DNA of 52,964 nucleotides, taken from the IMG/VR virus record IMGVR_UViG_3300037351_000019, positions 1-52,964 of that record, one strand, 5' to 3'. The notes under the pieces are model-generated. The model worked only from the letters and a program-made list of their open reading frames with translations. It had not been told where the DNA came from and did no database searches. This DNA is from a virus (lineage: Duplodnaviria > Caudoviricetes). Shown here one piece after another: positions 3,950 through 43,962 of this stretch. How positions within the stretch are numbered: the stretch's first letter is position 1; the number at the start of each line of letters is the position of its first letter. The position numbers and the translations under genes are program-made.

Positions 3950-4050
3950 TTTGTCACACAAAGGCTGAAAGTGTGTGACAAAAGTTCTAGTGTGTGACAA
4001 ATGGTGACTCCAAAGAAAAAGGTCGACGGTCGTCGCAAGATTGTCACACA
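3950..4050. promoter_or_regulatory. Cluster of four TTTGTCACACA-type sites at the TerS start
   Basis: 3950-3960 (+), 3972-3982 (-), 3991-4001 (-), 4040-4050 (+, one mismatch). Confidence 0.65.
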
Positions 4051-4558
4051 CGCTGGCGGCAGGCCACCGTCATTGACCGATGAGGTCCAAGAGCAGATTT
4101 TCGTCAACCGCAGGCTAGGAATCTCGTGGGAGCGATCAGCCAGACTCGCCGGCGTCAACATAACGACCGTGAAAAACTGGAAGGCCCGCGGCGAAGCGGC
4201 CTTGGAAAAGACCCCTACTAAGCGAAACGCCTTCGACAACAAGTGCATCGCCTTTCTCGCAGCAAGCGCCGTAGTCGAAGATGAGTGGCTCCGCAGGTGC
4301 GAAACCGTCCTGGCCTTCGCGCTGGAATCAGGCTCAGGAAAAGAGCGATGGAACAACGCTTCTGACGCCGATCGAGCCCTTGCGACGTCTACGGCGAAGT
4401 TCAAGCTCACACATCAAGCGAGCGACGAGTACTCAACCAAGTCAGCGACGGAACTCACCGGCAAGGACGGAGGACCCGTCGACATCGCACTCTCCGGTGA
4501 GGACGTGTTCAAGGTTCTGTTGGAAGCCAAAGCCGTTGAGGAAGCGAGTGAGGAATGA
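4001..4558 (+). CDS. terS: Terminase small subunit
   Basis: GGRPPSLT plus N-terminal HTH, C-terminal ELTGKDGGPV, upstream of TerL. Confidence 0.75.
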   Translation: MVTPKKKVDGRRKIVTHAGGRPPSLTDEVQEQIFVNRRLGISWERSARLAGVNITTVKNWKARGEAALEKTPTKRNAFDNKCIAFLAASAVVEDEWLRRCETVLAFALESGSGKERWNNASDADRALATSTAKFKLTHQASDEYSTKSATELTGKDGGPVDIALSGEDVFKVLLEAKAVEEASEE

Positions 4559-4836
4559 ACGACGACCTCCGCGACCAATTGAACGACGTCTTCGCGCCGT
4601 TCCTCATCGAACTCTCCGGCCAGCGAATCGGTGAGCCAACTCAGATGTGGTGTTCGACCTGCAACCTGCCCTCAGCCGAAGTCTGTGACCTCGCGGTTCT
4701 CGTGAAACGCCCCGGCGTCGAATCCTACGAGTGCGATCCCGTGGTGAACCTCGTCACCCTGTGGGGCTGTCACGGATGCCAGACGGTTTTTGAACTCCCG
4801 GACTCACCGACGCTGAAGGACAATCGTGACACCTGA
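4555..4836 (+). CDS. Zn-ribbon-like hypothetical protein
   Basis: CSTC...CHGC; ATGA overlap. Confidence 0.55.
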   Translation: MNDDLRDQLNDVFAPFLIELSGQRIGEPTQMWCSTCNLPSAEVCDLAVLVKRPGVESYECDPVVNLVTLWGCHGCQTVFELPDSPTLKDNRDT

Positions 4837-38797: not shown

Positions 38798-39298
38798 GTG
38801 AGTTGGCTTTCGCACCAATGGTTCACGTGGTGGTGGAGTTCGGACAAGGGCAATGGCCCCGAGAATATTCAGTGGACGATCCTTGCACTTATCGCCGCAT
38901 CATTCCTTATCCCCGCCGTGCGAAACTTCTTCAAACGGCTGGAGTCGAAGGTCGACCACGTAATCACCAACCACCCTGACATACCCGAATACGATGAGGC
39001 GAAGGCAGAATTCGAGAAGTGGGAACATTGGCTCGTGACGCTCGTCAAGAGCCTTTCGAAAAGGAGAAGCATGACCAAGAAGAATGACCGCAGGTTCGAA
39101 GCACTTCACGACAAGGTTGATGCAAATCACGCGGAGGTCTTGAAGCGACTGGAAGCGAACCAGACGAAGACGCAGAGTCTTCTCTTCGATCACCACGTCG
39201 ACACCATCGAGGCATTGAAGCCGAAGCCGCGCGTGAGAAAGCCTGTGAAGAAGGTCGCCAAAAAAGCGGCTCCTGCAAAGAAGGCGGCGAAGGGATGA
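38798..39298 (+). CDS. Membrane protein with Lys/Ala-rich tail
   Basis: One TM segment; KKVAKKAAPAKKAAK. Confidence 0.5.
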   Translation: MSWLSHQWFTWWWSSDKGNGPENIQWTILALIAASFLIPAVRNFFKRLESKVDHVITNHPDIPEYDEAKAEFEKWEHWLVTLVKSLSKRRSMTKKNDRRFEALHDKVDANHAEVLKRLEANQTKTQSLLFDHHVDTIEALKPKPRVRKPVKKVAKKAAPAKKAAKG

Positions 39299-40257
39299 GC
39301 GACGAGATCGTAGCGGGCCGCGTTGGCCCCCACAAGGAGAGCCACGAACCCCGACTCAAGGCTCGAGACTTCCTCGTCGGTGTAACCCCGGTCCAGGGGT
39401 TCCTTGAGTGGGATGGGACGAAGGGAATCGGTGAGCGTTGGGGGATGCTCGGCAATGACGTGTTCGGCGATTGTGGGCCCGCGGCGACGTCGCACAACAA
39501 CATGGCGAAAGCCGGTAATCCGAGCATTGGCGGTGATCTAGGACGACCGAAGTTCAATGGCGTCGAAGGAACGTACTTCGCCTACGGCATCGCCCAAGGT
39601 GAACCGGGACCGGAGCCTGACGAGGGCGTGGACAACGCGACGTGGTTGGGTTTCCTCTACAAAGAGGGAATCATCTACGGCTACGGGGAAGTGGACGATG
39701 AAGAGTTCGACTGGTTCGCTCAGTTGTTCGACGGTGCGATCGTCGGTCAAGGTCTTGACGGTCAGATTGCCTCAAATGACTTCAACGCCTCCCCGAGAAT
39801 CCCGTGGGACACGATGGACCAACCGGACGGCCATGACACCTTGACGATCATCACGCACGCTGACGGCTCGGGCGCTCTCGTTACCTGGGGAGCAGTACAG
39901 CCCTACACGGCGGCATACCGAAGGACGAACTGGCAGGACCGTTGGGTCATCTTCGACGCCGACGACCCGAACATCGACCATGCCAAACTACAAGCCGCAC
40001 TCGCTGACGTTCACGGAACCGTCACGCCTACCGCGTCTACTCCCGCCAAGGAATCATTCCTCGAAGAGGTTCTTGACAAGGTGCGCGCTGAGTTCAAGGG
40101 TTTCGAGGAATCCAAGACCTTCGAGGCCGCTGAGAAGCGCGTGAAGGAACTCGAACAGGGTCTGCACAAGGCGATGGGCTTGGCGCTCTCTCGCGAGTCG
40201 GAGACGGTCATCCTTGACGTGCTGAAGCAAATAGTCGCTGACTACATCCGAGTGTGA
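39295..40257 (+). CDS. Papain-fold cysteine peptidase-like protein
   Basis: MLGND.FGDC, GHD and VTWG motifs. Confidence 0.7.
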   Translation: MSDEIVAGRVGPHKESHEPRLKARDFLVGVTPVQGFLEWDGTKGIGERWGMLGNDVFGDCGPAATSHNNMAKAGNPSIGGDLGRPKFNGVEGTYFAYGIAQGEPGPEPDEGVDNATWLGFLYKEGIIYGYGEVDDEEFDWFAQLFDGAIVGQGLDGQIASNDFNASPRIPWDTMDQPDGHDTLTIITHADGSGALVTWGAVQPYTAAYRRTNWQDRWVIFDADDPNIDHAKLQAALADVHGTVTPTASTPAKESFLEEVLDKVRAEFKGFEESKTFEAAEKRVKELEQGLHKAMGLALSRESETVILDVLKQIVADYIRV

Positions 40258-40748
40258 TCGCCGGCGACATTGGGTTTGCTCGCACGACGGGTGTGATGGG
40301 TCGACTGATACGTTTCGGAGAACTACTCAAAGGCAAACCCGGTAGCGAGTGGAATCATCAGTTCATCGTCGACCGACAGATTGACGGAGAGTGGTACATC
40401 ATCCAAGCAACCATGAGGGGCGTCACGGATACGGCGAAACTCGCTGACGTAGCTCCGGGTGGAAAGTACGTCACGATGTCACCGCCGACCGAATGCGACC
40501 GCGCGAAGATTCTGGAGTTCAATCGCGCACAGGTTGGGGATAAATATTCATTCCTGACGATCCTCTCGATCGCCTTCGACATCCTGACGTGGAACTTCGT
40601 CCCAGCGTTCATGAACTCCTATCGTCAGTCGTGGGTCTGCTCGGGCTTGGTGAATGAATCCATGCGTTACGCAGGCTGGTTACATGAATACATAAACGTA
40701 TACTTAGTCACCCCCCAACAGGGCTTCAACGCTCTGAAACCCCAATGA
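40254..40748 (+). CDS. Permuted papain-like (YiiX/YebB-like) amidase
   Basis: AGDIGF, WNH before WVCSGLV, C-terminal VTP. Confidence 0.7.
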   Translation: MIAGDIGFARTTGVMGRLIRFGELLKGKPGSEWNHQFIVDRQIDGEWYIIQATMRGVTDTAKLADVAPGGKYVTMSPPTECDRAKILEFNRAQVGDKYSFLTILSIAFDILTWNFVPAFMNSYRQSWVCSGLVNESMRYAGWLHEYINVYLVTPQQGFNALKPQ

Positions 40749-40792: not shown

Positions 40793-40800
40793 TGTATGAT
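40793..40800 (+). promoter_or_regulatory. -10 element for the Y RNA/Ro60 transcript
   Basis: TGTATGAT half-site ends a few nt before Y RNA unit 1. Confidence 0.55.
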
Positions 40801-40803
40801 TCA

Positions 40804-40887
40804 TCTCAGTTGTAAACGGGCCGGACGCTTAAGGGTTATCTTGATAATATCTCCCTCGGCGAACAACTCGTCTGTTTAGTTCTGAGA
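40804..40887 (+). ncRNA. Y RNA-like unit 1 (short)
   Basis: TAAACGGGC-C-GG pairs with TCGTCTGTTTA (bulged C); TCTCAG/CTGAGA outer stem; shares GGTTATC and AACA.CTC with units 2 and 3. Confidence 0.7.
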
Positions 40888-40968
40888 AGTGAAGATGGGT
40901 CGGCTGCTTGACGGTTATCAACTGCTAATTGAAAAAATACCGTTGGCAAACACTCATCCATCTGAACT
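40888..40968 (+). ncRNA. Y RNA-like unit 2 (short, anticodon-like hairpin)
   Basis: AGATGGGT-C-GG pairs with TCATCCATCT; TGCTTGACGGT/ACCGTTGGCA stem; TCAA-CTGCTAA-TTGA hairpin. Confidence 0.75.
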
Positions 40969-40973
40969 CTCAA

Positions 40974-41119
40974 GATGTGAAATGCGGGTCGGCTTCAAAG
41001 GGTTATCCATCTTAAGGAAGAGGTCGCTGGTTCGAGTCCAGTCAGCCGCGCAAGTGGTTGTAGCTCAGTTGGTTAGAGCGCTTAATCCCCTTTGGAAACA
41101 CTCATCTGCACTGCACATC
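40974..41119 (+). ncRNA. yrlA: YrlA-like Y RNA with circularly permuted tRNA module
   Basis: Bulged-C Ro stem; T arm GCTGG-TTCGAGT-CCAGT (41026-42); acceptor-like stem CAGCCGC-GCAA-GTGGTTG; D arm GCTC-AGTTGGTTA-GAGC; adjacent to Ro60. Confidence 0.88.
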
Positions 41120-41168
41120 GTTCTGATCAGTCGGGGCTCGTCAAACCCACGACATGAAAGGAACACCG

Positions 41169-42761
41169 ATGACGAATTACCTGAAGCACATCACCGAGAC
41201 ACCGCAGACCGAAGCAATCCCCGGCCGAGAAGACGCGATGAAGTTGAACCACGCTGGCGGCTACTCATTCCAAGTCGACGACTGGGCGCGTCTCAATCGC
41301 TTCCTGATCCTCGGAACTGAAGGCGGCACGTACTACGTCGGTGAAGGAAAACTGACGCGCGAGAATGCCGGCGTCGTCTTGCGTTGCATAAAGCAGGACG
41401 GTATTCGCGTCGTGAATCGAATCGTCGAAGTCTCGGACCAGGGACTTGCGCCGAAGAATGACCCCGCAATCTTCGCTCTTGCGTTGTGTGCGAAGAACGG
41501 CGACGACGCAACTCGTTCACTGGCCTACAGATCAGTTCCGAAGGTCTGTCGAATCGGGACGCACTTGTTCCAGTTTGCGGAGTGCATCAACGAACTCGGC
41601 GGATGGGGTCGCGGCGCGCGTAAGGCTGTCGCTTCGTGGTACACGGAGAGGGAGCCCGAGAAGTTGGCCTACCAGTTGGTGAAGTACCGCCAGCGCAACG
41701 GGTGGTCACATCGGGACTTGCTTCGACTCTCGCATCCGAAGGCCACCGACGACGATCACGCGCTGTTGCTTCGCTACGCTGCCGGCAAGATCGAAGGTGC
41801 CACAGGTGGAGAGTTACCCAACATCATCACCGCCTACGAGTTTGCCAAGACCGCAACCATTGCTCAGACGGTGAGCCTCATAGAGGACTTCGACATGCCT
41901 CGCGAGTGCGTGAACACGGAATACCTGAACGACCCGAAGGTTCTCGAGGCGTTGCTTCAGAACATGCCGACGACCGCGCTCATCCGCAATCTCGGCAACC
42001 TCACGAAGGCCGGTGTCTTGACACCGTTCTCAGATGGAACGAAGCGAGCTATTGAACTACTCACCAACGCCGAGTCAATCCAAAAGTCTCGCGTTCACCC
42101 AATGGCGATCTATCTCGCGATGATTACCTACGGCTCGGGCCACGGTGATCGAGGACGGGGAGAATGGACGCCGGTGCAAGAGGTCATGGGGGCGCTTGAC
42201 AACGCCTTCTACGCTTCCATGCCGAACGTCGTCCCGAGCGGTAAGCGAGTGCTGTTCGCTCTTGATACCTCGGGTTCGATGGGCGGTGGGTACGGAACTG
42301 GCCGAGGGTACGACGCTCCCATCGCCAAGGCCGCAGCGATGGCGCTCATTGCAGCCAAGACCGAACCTCGCAGCATGATCATCGGCGTTGACACCGGAGT
42401 CCAGCAGGTCGGGATTCATCCGAACATGCGACTCGATGACGCCATCAAAGAGGCCGGTCGTCACGGTGGCGGCGGGACGTATCTCTCGTTGCCGTATCGC
42501 GCACTCATGGCTCAGAAGTACGACGTTGATGGGGTAGTTGTCTACACCGACTGCGAGACGTGGGCCGGTCGTGGTCATCCCTCACAGGCGTTGAATGAGT
42601 ACCGACGTTCCGTTGGTCACGAAGTCAGAAACGTCATCGCGTCAATGACGGCGACGAGCCATTCGGTCGGTGACGTGGAAGACCCGTTGACGTTGCAGTG
42701 TGTGGGCTTAGACGCGAGTCTCCCGCAGACGATAAGCCAGTTCATCGGCGGTCAATTCTGA
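41169..42761 (+). CDS. rsr: Ro60 / TROVE-vWA RNA-binding protein
   Basis: NHAGGYSF, RLNRFLILGTEGGTYY, KYRQRNGWSHRDLLRLSHP, MPTTALIRNLG, MIDAS DTSGS and TDCET; RBS GAAAGGA. Confidence 0.96.
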   Translation: MTNYLKHITETPQTEAIPGREDAMKLNHAGGYSFQVDDWARLNRFLILGTEGGTYYVGEGKLTRENAGVVLRCIKQDGIRVVNRIVEVSDQGLAPKNDPAIFALALCAKNGDDATRSLAYRSVPKVCRIGTHLFQFAECINELGGWGRGARKAVASWYTEREPEKLAYQLVKYRQRNGWSHRDLLRLSHPKATDDDHALLLRYAAGKIEGATGGELPNIITAYEFAKTATIAQTVSLIEDFDMPRECVNTEYLNDPKVLEALLQNMPTTALIRNLGNLTKAGVLTPFSDGTKRAIELLTNAESIQKSRVHPMAIYLAMITYGSGHGDRGRGEWTPVQEVMGALDNAFYASMPNVVPSGKRVLFALDTSGSMGGGYGTGRGYDAPIAKAAAMALIAAKTEPRSMIIGVDTGVQQVGIHPNMRLDDAIKEAGRHGGGGTYLSLPYRALMAQKYDVDGVVVYTDCETWAGRGHPSQALNEYRRSVGHEVRNVIASMTATSHSVGDVEDPLTLQCVGLDASLPQTISQFIGGQF

Positions 42762-42949: not shown

Positions 42950-43111
42950 ATGACTGAACATGGACTGAACGGCTGTGAGCGCGAGATCTACGAACTCAGG
43001 CGCGAACTGCGTAACGAGCGTCAGGTCTCCGCTGAATCATCGGCGCGACTGAACGCCATCATCGAGCAGTGTGAGGCGACCATCGCTGAGTTGCGGGCGG
43101 TGAAGGTATGA
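42950..43111 (+). CDS. 53-aa coiled-coil protein (not in ORF track)
   Basis: Strong RBS; ATGA overlap with the exonuclease gene. Confidence 0.6.
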   Translation: MTEHGLNGCEREIYELRRELRNERQVSAESSARLNAIIEQCEATIAELRAVKV

Positions 43112-43962
43112 CGAACCCGTCGATATTTCTCGGTGAGGTCGACGCCAAACCGCAAGACGAGGATCTTCGTTTCTACTCGGTGACGACGCTGATCGGTCTT
43201 GACAAGCCGGCCCTGCTGTACTGGGCCGCTGAACAGACCGCCGAACTCGCGGTGCACGTTGCGTCATCACTTCCCCGACGAATCAAAGAGGAAGGACGCG
43301 ACGCCGTTGTCAAGTGGTTGCGTGACGCACGCTTCCGACCACAGAAAGGAATGGTGTCGGCGGCTGAACTCGGCACTCAGGTCCACGAGGCCGTTGAACA
43401 GTACGCACTCACTGGAATCCGTCCAGACGTCGAGAACCCCGAGGTACTTCCATTCCTTGACCGCTTCGATGAGTGGGCGCAGATTTGGCAGCCCGAGTAC
43501 ATTGCGGCCGAGGCAGCGGTCTACAACAAGACCTACGGCTACGCCGGGACTCTGGACAACCTCATGAAGGTCCAGGGAATGACGGTGATCTCAGACACGA
43601 AGACATCGCGCAAAGCCGTTGGGTCTGACGGCAAGCCAACGGGACCGTACCCCGAGGCGGCGTTGCAACTGTCGGCCTATCGCTACGCCGAACTCATTGC
43701 AACATGGCGAGCGCGTCGGTTCGAGAAGTACCGACGTCGCTACTACCTTTTGAACACCGACGAGGAAGAACTCGGCGTGAAGATGCCACAGGTCGACGGG
43801 GCGGTCGTGTTGCACCTGACACCTGAGCACGCGACACTACACCCAGTCAAGGCCGACGAAGAGGTATTCGAGAAGTTTCTTCATTGCATAGAAATCTTCG
43901 ACTGGGCAAATGGCCTAGCGAAACAGGTCATCGGCGAACCCATGATCAGAAGGGCGGTATGA
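43108..43962 (+). CDS. PD-(D/E)XK (Cas4/RecB-like) exonuclease
   Basis: SVTTLI, GTQVH, E...YAGTLD, DTKTS and QLSAY motifs. Confidence 0.85.
   Translation: MTNPSIFLGEVDAKPQDEDLRFYSVTTLIGLDKPALLYWAAEQTAELAVHVASSLPRRIKEEGRDAVVKWLRDARFRPQKGMVSAAELGTQVHEAVEQYALTGIRPDVENPEVLPFLDRFDEWAQIWQPEYIAAEAAVYNKTYGYAGTLDNLMKVQGMTVISDTKTSRKAVGSDGKPTGPYPEAALQLSAYRYAELIATWRARRFEKYRRRYYLLNTDEEELGVKMPQVDGAVVLHLTPEHATLHPVKADEEVFEKFLHCIEIFDWANGLAKQVIGEPMIRRAV

Follow-up and report, generated by a model that had tools for sequence, protein, structure and literature searches.

What are the anticodon-like loops in the Y RNA array of the viral record IMGVR_UViG_3300037351_000019 (Duplodnaviria; Caudoviricetes)? This complete 52,964-bp virus record, which is the window throughout the text, carries three Y RNA-like units (40815-41112, + strand) directly upstream of, and on the same strand as, a gene for a Ro60/Rsr orthologue (41154-42761). 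An earlier reading made from the letters alone (hereafter, the sequence-only reading) had seen in each unit a seven-nucleotide (nt) loop resembling a tRNA anticodon loop, each with a different middle triplet, and had taken these loops for Ro60-protected decoys in a phage counter-defence. We find that two of the three units can form a hairpin built like the anticodon arm of a tRNA, and that this hairpin recurs at other Ro60 loci, where its frame is kept and its triplet varies. The hairpin is probably a generic mimic of the anticodon loop, with a largely free triplet, on a tRNA-derived, Ro60-associated Y RNA.

The 400 nt upstream of Ro60 hold three direct repeats of a 30-nt block ending in GGTTATC (repeat family D1; the GGTTATC copies lie at 40834-40840 in unit 1, 40913-40919 in unit 2, and 41001-41007 in unit 3), and in folding each repeat opens a unit closed by a stem (Table 1). 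Only unit 3 contains a T arm, a closed acceptor-like stem-loop, and a D arm in the order known from YrlA: read from its 5′ end, it runs from the anticodon-like arm through the T arm and the closed acceptor stem to the D arm, which makes no linear cloverleaf and draws no call from a tRNA finder. Its hairpin is made of three Watson-Crick pairs and, beyond an A-A mismatch, an outer U-G pair; in our alignment of homologues (A6, described below), exactly 5 nt separate it from the T stem. Units 1 and 2 lack T and D arms and correspond to the shorter, “YrlB”-like kind; unit 1 folds, in its minimum free energy (MFE) structure, with an open loop of 17 nt. The placement of the units within ~2 kilobases of a Ro60 orthologue, on its strand, is that of a YrlA-type RNA, and the matches to covariance models, together with the downstream gene of TROVE and von Willebrand factor A (vWA) domains, bear out the sequence-only reading in calling these Y RNA units beside Ro60. 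The positions and letters that it gave for the loop regions are exact throughout (unit 1, 40841-40847; unit 2, 40918-40932; unit 3, 41006-41018).

Since the three units are paralogues and thus not independent, the case for an anticodon-like arm is built on homologues rather than on the window by itself, which offers two hairpins, of which one is marginal, and three heptamers from paralogous units. A single Ro60 protein used as query found no related loci, and a four-protein Ro60 alignment (A1) was needed; this alignment led to 80 loci from viral contigs and 80 from genome assemblies labelled bacterial (for which chromosomal and prophage origins were not distinguished). Genome loci number more than 570 in all. 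The loci of Gordonia phage Cashline, Microbacterium phage FuzzBuster, and mycobacteriophage I3 were also fetched, and Ro60 relatives are present in 355 phage records. Four tRNA-like units, their hairpin region left unpaired, served to build a covariance model, R1; it has 84 matches in 84 viral or phage sources and 141 in the 80 genome-assembly loci, which comprise full tRNA-like units and short units of 60 to 70 nt, often in tandem and up to seven per locus. A GGTTAYC-type motif near the 5′ end is found in 185 of these 225 matches, yielding 181 unique units from 164 Ro60 loci. For questions of position, we used a T-arm-anchored set of 128 units, made with no selection for pairing, which contained some adjacent true tRNA genes (L113:2916, L127:3249, and L137:2393); a strict filter for the Ro-type motif plus GGTTA drops 44 of the 128 and leaves 84, at the cost of real units such as those of L004 and L070. 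Pairing was counted in A6, an ungapped alignment of these 84 units that was not fitted to structure. (In a MAFFT alignment, A5, gaps separated the loop from the 5′ strand, which made it unusable for pair counts.) The 200 shuffles made for loop counts keep composition; for pairing in A6, 500 were made.

The hairpin recurs far more often than in shuffled sequences. Among the 181 units, a stem of at least 3 base pairs (bp) closing a 7-nt loop occurs in 135 (94.1 ± 6.2 when shuffled); stems of this length around the pattern N-U-N-N-N-A-A number 46 (1.2 ± 1.1, with a maximum of 6 in 200 shuffles), and those around the stricter N-U-N-N-U-A-A number 29 (0.2 ± 0.4). Loops of 3 to 6 nt occur at the shuffle level and those of 8 to 10 nt lie 2 to 4 standard deviations above it, compared with about 6 for loops of 7 nt. 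Both kinds of unit carry the N-U-N-N-N-A-A arm: 10 of 47 short units (0.2 in shuffles) and 34 of 112 tRNA-like units (0.7 in shuffles). Its placement is specific as well. An arm of 5 + 7 + 5 nt set 5 nt before the T stem has all three inner pairs formed in 41% of the 128 T-anchored units, versus 3 to 15% at ten other offsets, and filtering leaves this result in place (40% of 84 units, or 34 arms, versus at most 15% at other offsets). In A6, the three inner pairs are paired in 60.3% of cases, as opposed to 41.3 ± 2.6% in shuffles (0 of 500 reach the observed value) and 30.6 to 46.4% when the arm is slid along the alignment; their covariation score is 0.470 (0.200 shuffled, 0.117 to 0.254 slid), and double-sided changes number 71 versus 34.8.

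The arm is as common in the 80 loci of bacterial-labelled assemblies as in the viral contigs, and it stands beside rsr in assemblies labelled Chloroflexota, Myxococcota, Armatimonadota, and others. A scan of the viral contigs for the exact pattern returned 9 stretches only. In L165, L016, L061, L138, and L153, ARAGORN, run on the unaltered loci, takes the hairpin of Y units for an anticodon arm. The same program applied to computationally un-permuted units was non-discriminating, with a flat offset control (47 units at offset 0, 39 to 58 elsewhere), and was left unused.

The loop itself has a constant frame and a variable center. In the 34 T-anchored arms, a pyrimidine occupies position 32 in 30, U33 is present in 29, a purine occupies position 37 in 32, and A38 is present in 33, and the pentamer that follows the arm is AGGTC in 13, as in unit 3. 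Positions 34 to 36, by comparison, are spread over all bases, and the 34 arms have 21 distinct middle triplets. Among the loops of the family, these positions are close to uniform in composition, with some triplets that begin with A (ATT, ATC, and AAG). The geometry recognized in the sequence-only reading (a 7-nt loop with U33 and A37-A38) thus recurs in homologues, and the check that it had called for, an alignment of homologous units, came out as it had anticipated, with U33, R37, and A38 kept, the triplet variable, and the stem covarying. Its further suggestion of an NNU triplet ahead of A37-A38, the context of t6A modification, stands in part: U36-A37-A38 is over-represented (29 of 46 strict N-U-N-N-N-A-A loops), but an NNU triplet is not a rule. 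Within the window, units 2 and 3 have the tRNA-type features of the loop (7 nt, U33, and a purine at 37), and the claim that every unit presents such a loop holds for these two hairpins and fails for unit 1, where the letters of the loop lack a stem, as the sequence-only reading had half conceded. The loop of unit 2, CTGCTAA, recurs in L016:1218, L041:1101, L138:991, and L093:1356, and in the Gordonia phage Sixama (L177, ~4225-4240). Taken together, a conserved loop frame, a short variable loop, and a T arm are the frame of the anticodon region of a tRNA.

Some differences among close relatives fall on the triplet. DNA contigs of a close relative differ from the window at 40844 and 40845, triplet bases within the heptamer of unit 1, and the Y units of Shifa and I3 differ at 4 positions in 144 nt, one being the third triplet base; these differences would be compatible with unconstrained or with diversifying triplets. 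Within loci, 0 of 22 pairs of triplets are identical where 0.6 would be expected by chance, a comparison that is uninformative on distinctness. The array as a whole is nearly unchanged in one comparison: in a permafrost DNA contig from a ~98%-identical relative, there are 2 differences in the 350-nt array, compared with 21 in the next 400 nt of Ro60. This metagenomic contig (run X3, record 12) covers the array and part of Ro60 (window positions 40798-41800) with 23 differences, and the 21 that lie in the Ro60 frame have mostly a 3-nt spacing.

Several observations weigh against an anticodon-arm mimic. The arm is present in only about 40% of units, and 46 of the 181 have no hairpin with a 7-nt loop at all. 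The outer pairs, 27-43 and 28-42, do not rise above the slid controls, and the stem is effectively only 3 to 4 bp, shorter than a real anticodon stem, because these outer pairs add nothing; the window agrees, with 4 bp in unit 2 and three pairs plus the outer U-G in unit 3, in place of the 5 bp of a tRNA. In unit 2, the hairpin belongs to the MFE fold (pair probabilities 0.55 to 0.67), but that of unit 3 lies outside the MFE fold, with pair probabilities of 0.17 to 0.19 and a cost of 1.1 kcal/mol when it is forced (−40.6 versus −41.7 kcal/mol); in isolation, it is thermodynamically marginal (−1.5 kcal/mol). Around the heptamer of unit 1, the would-be pairs are C-U, U-C, and U-U, all of probability 0; no more than two inner pairs come to ~0.3. 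In a census of MFE folds, the first hairpin after GGUUA has a 7-nt loop in 13.3% of units (5.9% in shuffles) and 34% have no hairpin, although such a census was replaced by direct counts of stems and loops because it is too blunt for stems of 3 bp. U36, though enriched, is not fixed (17 of 34 T-anchored arms). Because related sequences are not independent, significance is overstated by the shuffle controls. Finally, expression of unit 3 is a weak hint from two metatranscriptome contigs, assembled from two peat sources, which cover 40953-41111 and 40961-41111, little beyond unit 3, and both stop at its predicted 3′ end, where a DNA contig continues past. The data behind these comparisons are assembled contigs (DNA, X2 and X3; RNA, X8 and X10), and the parts that they leave uncovered are uninformative.

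Two other pairings and one other source of signal were discarded. Pairing of TTAAG (41012-41016) in unit 3 with the CTTAA that follows the D arm was dropped: the partner strand is near-invariant, the fit is worse in FuzzBuster, and the local hairpin covaries. The pairing CUUAAGG/CCUUUGG of the Rfam alignment conflicts with the MFE stem CAAAGGG/CCCUUUG, which fits the layout of units 1 and 2. Pieces from the runs that match 41013-41043 and 41060-41083 joined in tRNA order come from ordinary tRNAs of other organisms. We also surveyed the closed acceptor-like stem for an encoded CCA in the 63 of 84 units whose stem has at least 6 of 7 bp: in 12 of these 63, the first loop base is followed by CA, and the loops are mostly ordinary tetraloops, so no claim is made.

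Table 1. Positions of the Y RNA units, their parts, and the Ro60 gene in the window.
Feature	Position	Strand	Evidence
Y RNA unit 1, short type; Ro60-binding-like stem, open apical loop	40815-40878	+	R1 20.4 bits, E 5.4e-5, filters off
Unit 1 heptamer TTGATAA, loop letters with no flanking stem	40841-40847	+	Flanking pair probability 0
Y RNA unit 2, short type	40894-40964	+	R1 28.8 bits (E 4.5e-7); MFE fold
Unit 2 anticodon-arm-like hairpin, 4-bp TCAA/TTGA, loop CTGCTAA 40922-40928	40917-40933	+	In MFE fold
Y RNA unit 3, YrlA type; Ro60-binding-like stem and circularly permuted tRNA-like domain	40983-41112	+	RF02553 match; fold
Unit 3 anticodon-arm-like hairpin (published “V” position), TCC/GGA, loop ATCTTAA 41009-41015	41004-41020	+	
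5-nt variable-loop equivalent AGGTC	41021-41025	+	Commonest pre-T-stem pentamer in arm-bearing units, 13/34
T arm mimic (GCTGG, TTCGAGT, CCAGT)	41026-41042	+	Rfam alignment and fold; T-stem pairs 99.8% paired in A6
Acceptor-stem mimic, 7 bp, tetraloop GCAA	41043-41060	+	Fold
D arm mimic (GCTC, AGTTGGTTA, GAGC)	41063-41079	+	Rfam alignment and fold
Ro60/Rsr orthologue, TROVE and Ro60 vWA domains	41154-42761	+	PF05731 9.8e-44, PF25045 1.1e-34

We propose that the loops seen in the window are parts of three Ro60-associated Y RNAs arranged in tandem, from a family that would be derived from tRNA. Unit 3 would be a whole cloverleaf with relocated ends, in which the acceptor stem is sealed by a tetraloop and the RNA would enter and leave between the D arm and the next hairpin, by way of the long stem that, by homology, may bind Ro60 (adjacency to the gene and the conserved bulged terminal stem point to such binding). 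Because it begins inside GGUUAYC and stops 5 nt short of the T stem, the hairpin takes the place of the anticodon arm of a tRNA. Short units such as unit 2 would retain just the Ro60 stem and the hairpin, and unit 1 would have lost the stem of the latter. Selection would maintain the shape of the loop (a Y-U start, an R-A end, and 7 nt) and not its three middle bases, leaving the triplet largely free to drift. From a loop frame that is kept and a triplet that is free, we infer a generic anticodon-loop surface: while the RNA is held on Ro60, the hairpin would offer a putative U-turn to a partner that handles anticodon loops, with a modification enzyme, an anticodon nuclease, PNPase, and the ribosome as candidates. 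A free triplet would imply that such a partner reads the frame of the loop rather than the anticodon, or that there are several partners.

The anatomy, the recurrence, the covariation, and the loop signature are direct observations, and they sustain the structural half of what the sequence-only reading had proposed; its functional half draws on geometry only. That half held that the loops form a repertoire of Ro60-protected anticodon decoys, each triplet chosen for an anticodon nuclease or for a tRNA-modifying enzyme (for example, that of t6A), as a phage counter-defence. Loop geometry and signature do match those of anticodon loops, the frequency of U36-A37-A38 is as such a repertoire would have it, triplets differ in 22 of 22 within-array pairs, and close relatives differ at triplet bases (40844 and 40845 in unit 1; I3 versus Shifa). 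Precedents can be cited as well: the text of Hughes et al. (2020; PMC7790460) suggests, as speculation, that YrlA acts as a competitive inhibitor of an anticodon nuclease, and phage tRNAs have been proposed to counter tRNA-targeting defenses (PMC10264068 and PMC11555353). But the distinctness of triplets within loci is what chance alone gives, and a selected repertoire is thus indistinguishable from free drift. Positions 34 to 36 are near-uniform and include triplets that start with A, a base not usually found at position 34 in bacterial tRNAs. The presence of the arm beside rsr in bacterial-labelled assemblies, with chromosomal and prophage loci not told apart, means that it is not a phage-only device. 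Moreover, the stems have just 3 to 4 bp (none in unit 1), the window has no tRNA genes by ARAGORN, and no RNA-repair family is found among the five open reading frames (ORFs) scanned around Ro60, with the rest of the window outside that scan. We therefore hold a repertoire of chosen decoys to be unlikely.

A somewhat better prospect, if still the less probable course, is that the three-dimensional fold follows the published drawing: the long Ro60 stem, continued by the GGUUA and CUAAAC strands, would stack under the D arm as the equivalent of the anticodon stem, and the hairpin would be a variable arm, as in class II tRNAs, whose loop serves some other contact, be it a tertiary one or a KH/S1 site of PNPase. 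The text of Chen et al. (2014; PMC4201824) places a stem-loop there, with YUAY at its start, and in the Salmonella Typhimurium YrlA crystal, as the text of its preprint (10.1101/312249) has it, the stem of nt 15-27/83-93 is the equivalent of the anticodon stem; since the long stem takes that position, the hairpin of our units may project as a variable arm, which counts against a mimic of the anticodon arm. It would also be possible for the UUA in GGUUAYC to pair with UAA in the conserved strand that follows the D arm. Both strands are invariant, and such a pairing is therefore devoid of covariation information; GGUUA and CUAAAC are the strands that would decide between stacking on the D stem and projection. 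The hairpin is also unlike a variable arm in having 17 nt, a 7-nt loop, and the Y-U...R-A signature; variable arms have loops of 3 to 5 nt and are not known to carry this signature. The 4 to 5 nt between hairpin and T stem (AGGTC in 13 of 34) are those of tRNAs with a short variable loop, and the short units hold the hairpin with no T or D arm for it to adjoin. That the hairpin is a functionless left-over of an ancestral tRNA, with the window loops alike by common descent, appears very improbable. It would accommodate the absence of the arm from ~60% of units, the lost stem of unit 1, the drift of triplets, and the description of the element as less conserved in the text of Chen et al., but the loop signature and the covarying stem are maintained in viral contigs and in several bacterial phyla, short units that have dropped the T and D arms still have the hairpin, and the array of the ~98%-identical relative is nearly free of differences next to a diverging Ro60 gene.

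A generic anticodon-loop mimic, then, is the reading that we carry into comparison with known RNAs. According to the text of Chen et al. (2014), at least two Y RNAs are present in each of the three species characterized, and the fourth stem-loop of YrlA is a less-conserved “V” stem-loop, drawn as a variable arm; the function of tRNA mimicry by Y RNAs is posed there as a question. The window shares with YrlA and YrlB (PMC4201824 and RF02553) the position beside a Ro60 orthologue on the same strand, the long terminal stem with a 5′ Ro-type motif, the permuted T arm, closed acceptor-like stem, and D arm, the fourth stem-loop upstream of the T arm at YUAY (UUAU in the window), and the second, shorter Y RNA in one precursor. 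It differs in several respects. Unit 3 scores 39 bits against Rfam YrlA (RF02553; E 5.3e-7, positions 40998-41111), below the gathering score of 69, and no Rfam family reaches gathering level in the window; its 130.1 bits against R1 are those of a seed of that model. Three units stand in tandem, and their 5′ motifs, GCCGGACG, GTCGGCTG, and GTCGGCTT, carry G where the fifth place of GNCGAAN0-1G has A (thus GNCGG, not GNCGAA); many homologues have GCCGAAG. And where YrlA is drawn with a variable arm, we take the fourth stem-loop to mimic an anticodon arm, its loop conserved as Y-U-NNN-R-A. The hairpin itself was thus already known from Chen et al.; what is new is that it resembles an anticodon arm in size, position, and loop frame, that the frame is selected and the triplet is not, and that short units keep it. 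A search of the literature on YrlA and anticodons, with coverage that excluded the figures and supplements of Chen et al. and the 2020 review of bacterial Ro60, found no such reading.

The YrlA of S. Typhimurium, as described in the text of Wang et al. (2018; preprint 10.1101/312249), is likewise an L-shaped tRNA mimic with no free CCA end and with equivalents of the T arm, D arm, and acceptor stem, but it lacks an anticodon loop, the long stem taking the position of the anticodon stem; it has only a few nt before the T arm, the place at which ~40% of our units have a 17-nt hairpin. The anticodon stem-loop of tRNAs shares with that hairpin the 7-nt loop, Y32, U33, R37, and A38, the free positions 34 to 36, and the 4- to 5-nt variable loop followed by a T arm, and it differs in its stem of 5 bp (effectively 3 to 4 bp in the window family); our molecules are, in addition, circularly permuted and not tRNA gene calls. 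Phage tRNAs proposed to evade tRNA-targeting defenses (PMC10264068 and PMC11555353) are RNAs of actinobacteriophages that also have anticodon loops and a possible link to anticodon nucleases, but they are working replacements of cleaved host tRNAs, whereas the window units would be mimics that are linked to Ro60 and closed at the acceptor end. Metazoan Y RNAs and nematode sbRNAs (RF01656) share the bulged terminal stem and a GGGUUAUC-type motif 5′ of the loop, but the text of Chen et al. describes no tRNA-like module for metazoan Y RNAs, and the window match is far below threshold: it is confined to unit 1 (window 40812-40878), with 22.8 bits against a threshold of 38 and E 0.036. The basis of this match is the common GGGUUAUC and the terminal stem, and it hints that this motif may be older than the bacterial and phage family.

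Pfam gives no match for the two ORFs just upstream of the array (39295-40748 region; 320 and 164 amino acids). Downstream of Ro60, the ORF at 43108-43962 has a weak match to PD-(D/E)XK nucleases, and that at 43964-45250 matches the Gp3-like family PF18897 (2e-37).

Other loci show further arrangements of Y units. In Sixama (4050-4641, downstream of Ro60), Y units alternate one to one with annotated tRNA genes, in the order tRNA-Arg (4123-4196), Y unit (4199-4326), tRNA-Gln (4332-4403), Y unit (4407-4535), tRNA-Ile (4541-4614), and a further unit from ~4620, a layout that suggests processing of the Y RNA precursor punctuated by tRNAs. Mycobacterium phage prophiGD43A-5, a prophage of M. abscessus (L165), has five tandem R1 matches at 871-1584 upstream of Ro60 and a weaker sixth at 718-834; here, GenBank annotates a “tRNA-Thr (tgt)” at 862-940, which runs over the 5′ half of a Y unit (871-999) and has the hairpin of that unit for its anticodon arm. 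Five to seven R1 matches lie beside rsr, both upstream and downstream, in L103, L086, L142, and L117, which are Chloroflexota-type and other contigs of metagenome-assembled genomes. Among 200 cluster-C-type mycobacteriophage records, 179 carry the Y unit of I3 (L004, 2207-2350) with at least 99% identity, and several records of this type have coding sequences for hypothetical proteins annotated across it. R1 also matches pairs of adjacent true tRNA genes, combining the T arm of one with the D arm of the next, as in L137 (2393-2522), L113 (2916-3072), and L127 (3249-3367).

These arrangements matter for annotation: gene finders and GenBank records call some Y units tRNAs or overlay them with protein genes, and adjacent tRNA gene pairs are a trap for searches of permuted tRNA mimics. 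A bolder extension of the generic-mimic reading, which we put forward as speculation and think more probably wrong than right by a wide measure, is that Y RNA arrays are libraries of anticodon stem-loop mimics on a protein ring, in which the constant Y32, U33, R37, and A38 would be the ligand for enzymes that attack or modify tRNAs and the free triplets would widen the range of those engaged. Phages might use such a library to soak up or sense tRNA-directed defense nucleases, and bacteria might use it to buffer or report tRNA damage, as the rsr-yrlBA-rtcBA repair operon brings to mind. For the family at large, a large share of Y RNAs, in phages and bacteria, keep a look-alike of the anticodon arm in addition to their mimicry of the upper half of a tRNA. 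This narrows the search for a partner of Y RNAs to proteins that handle anticodon loops, and the role of the tRNA-like part of bacterial Y RNAs becomes directly testable.

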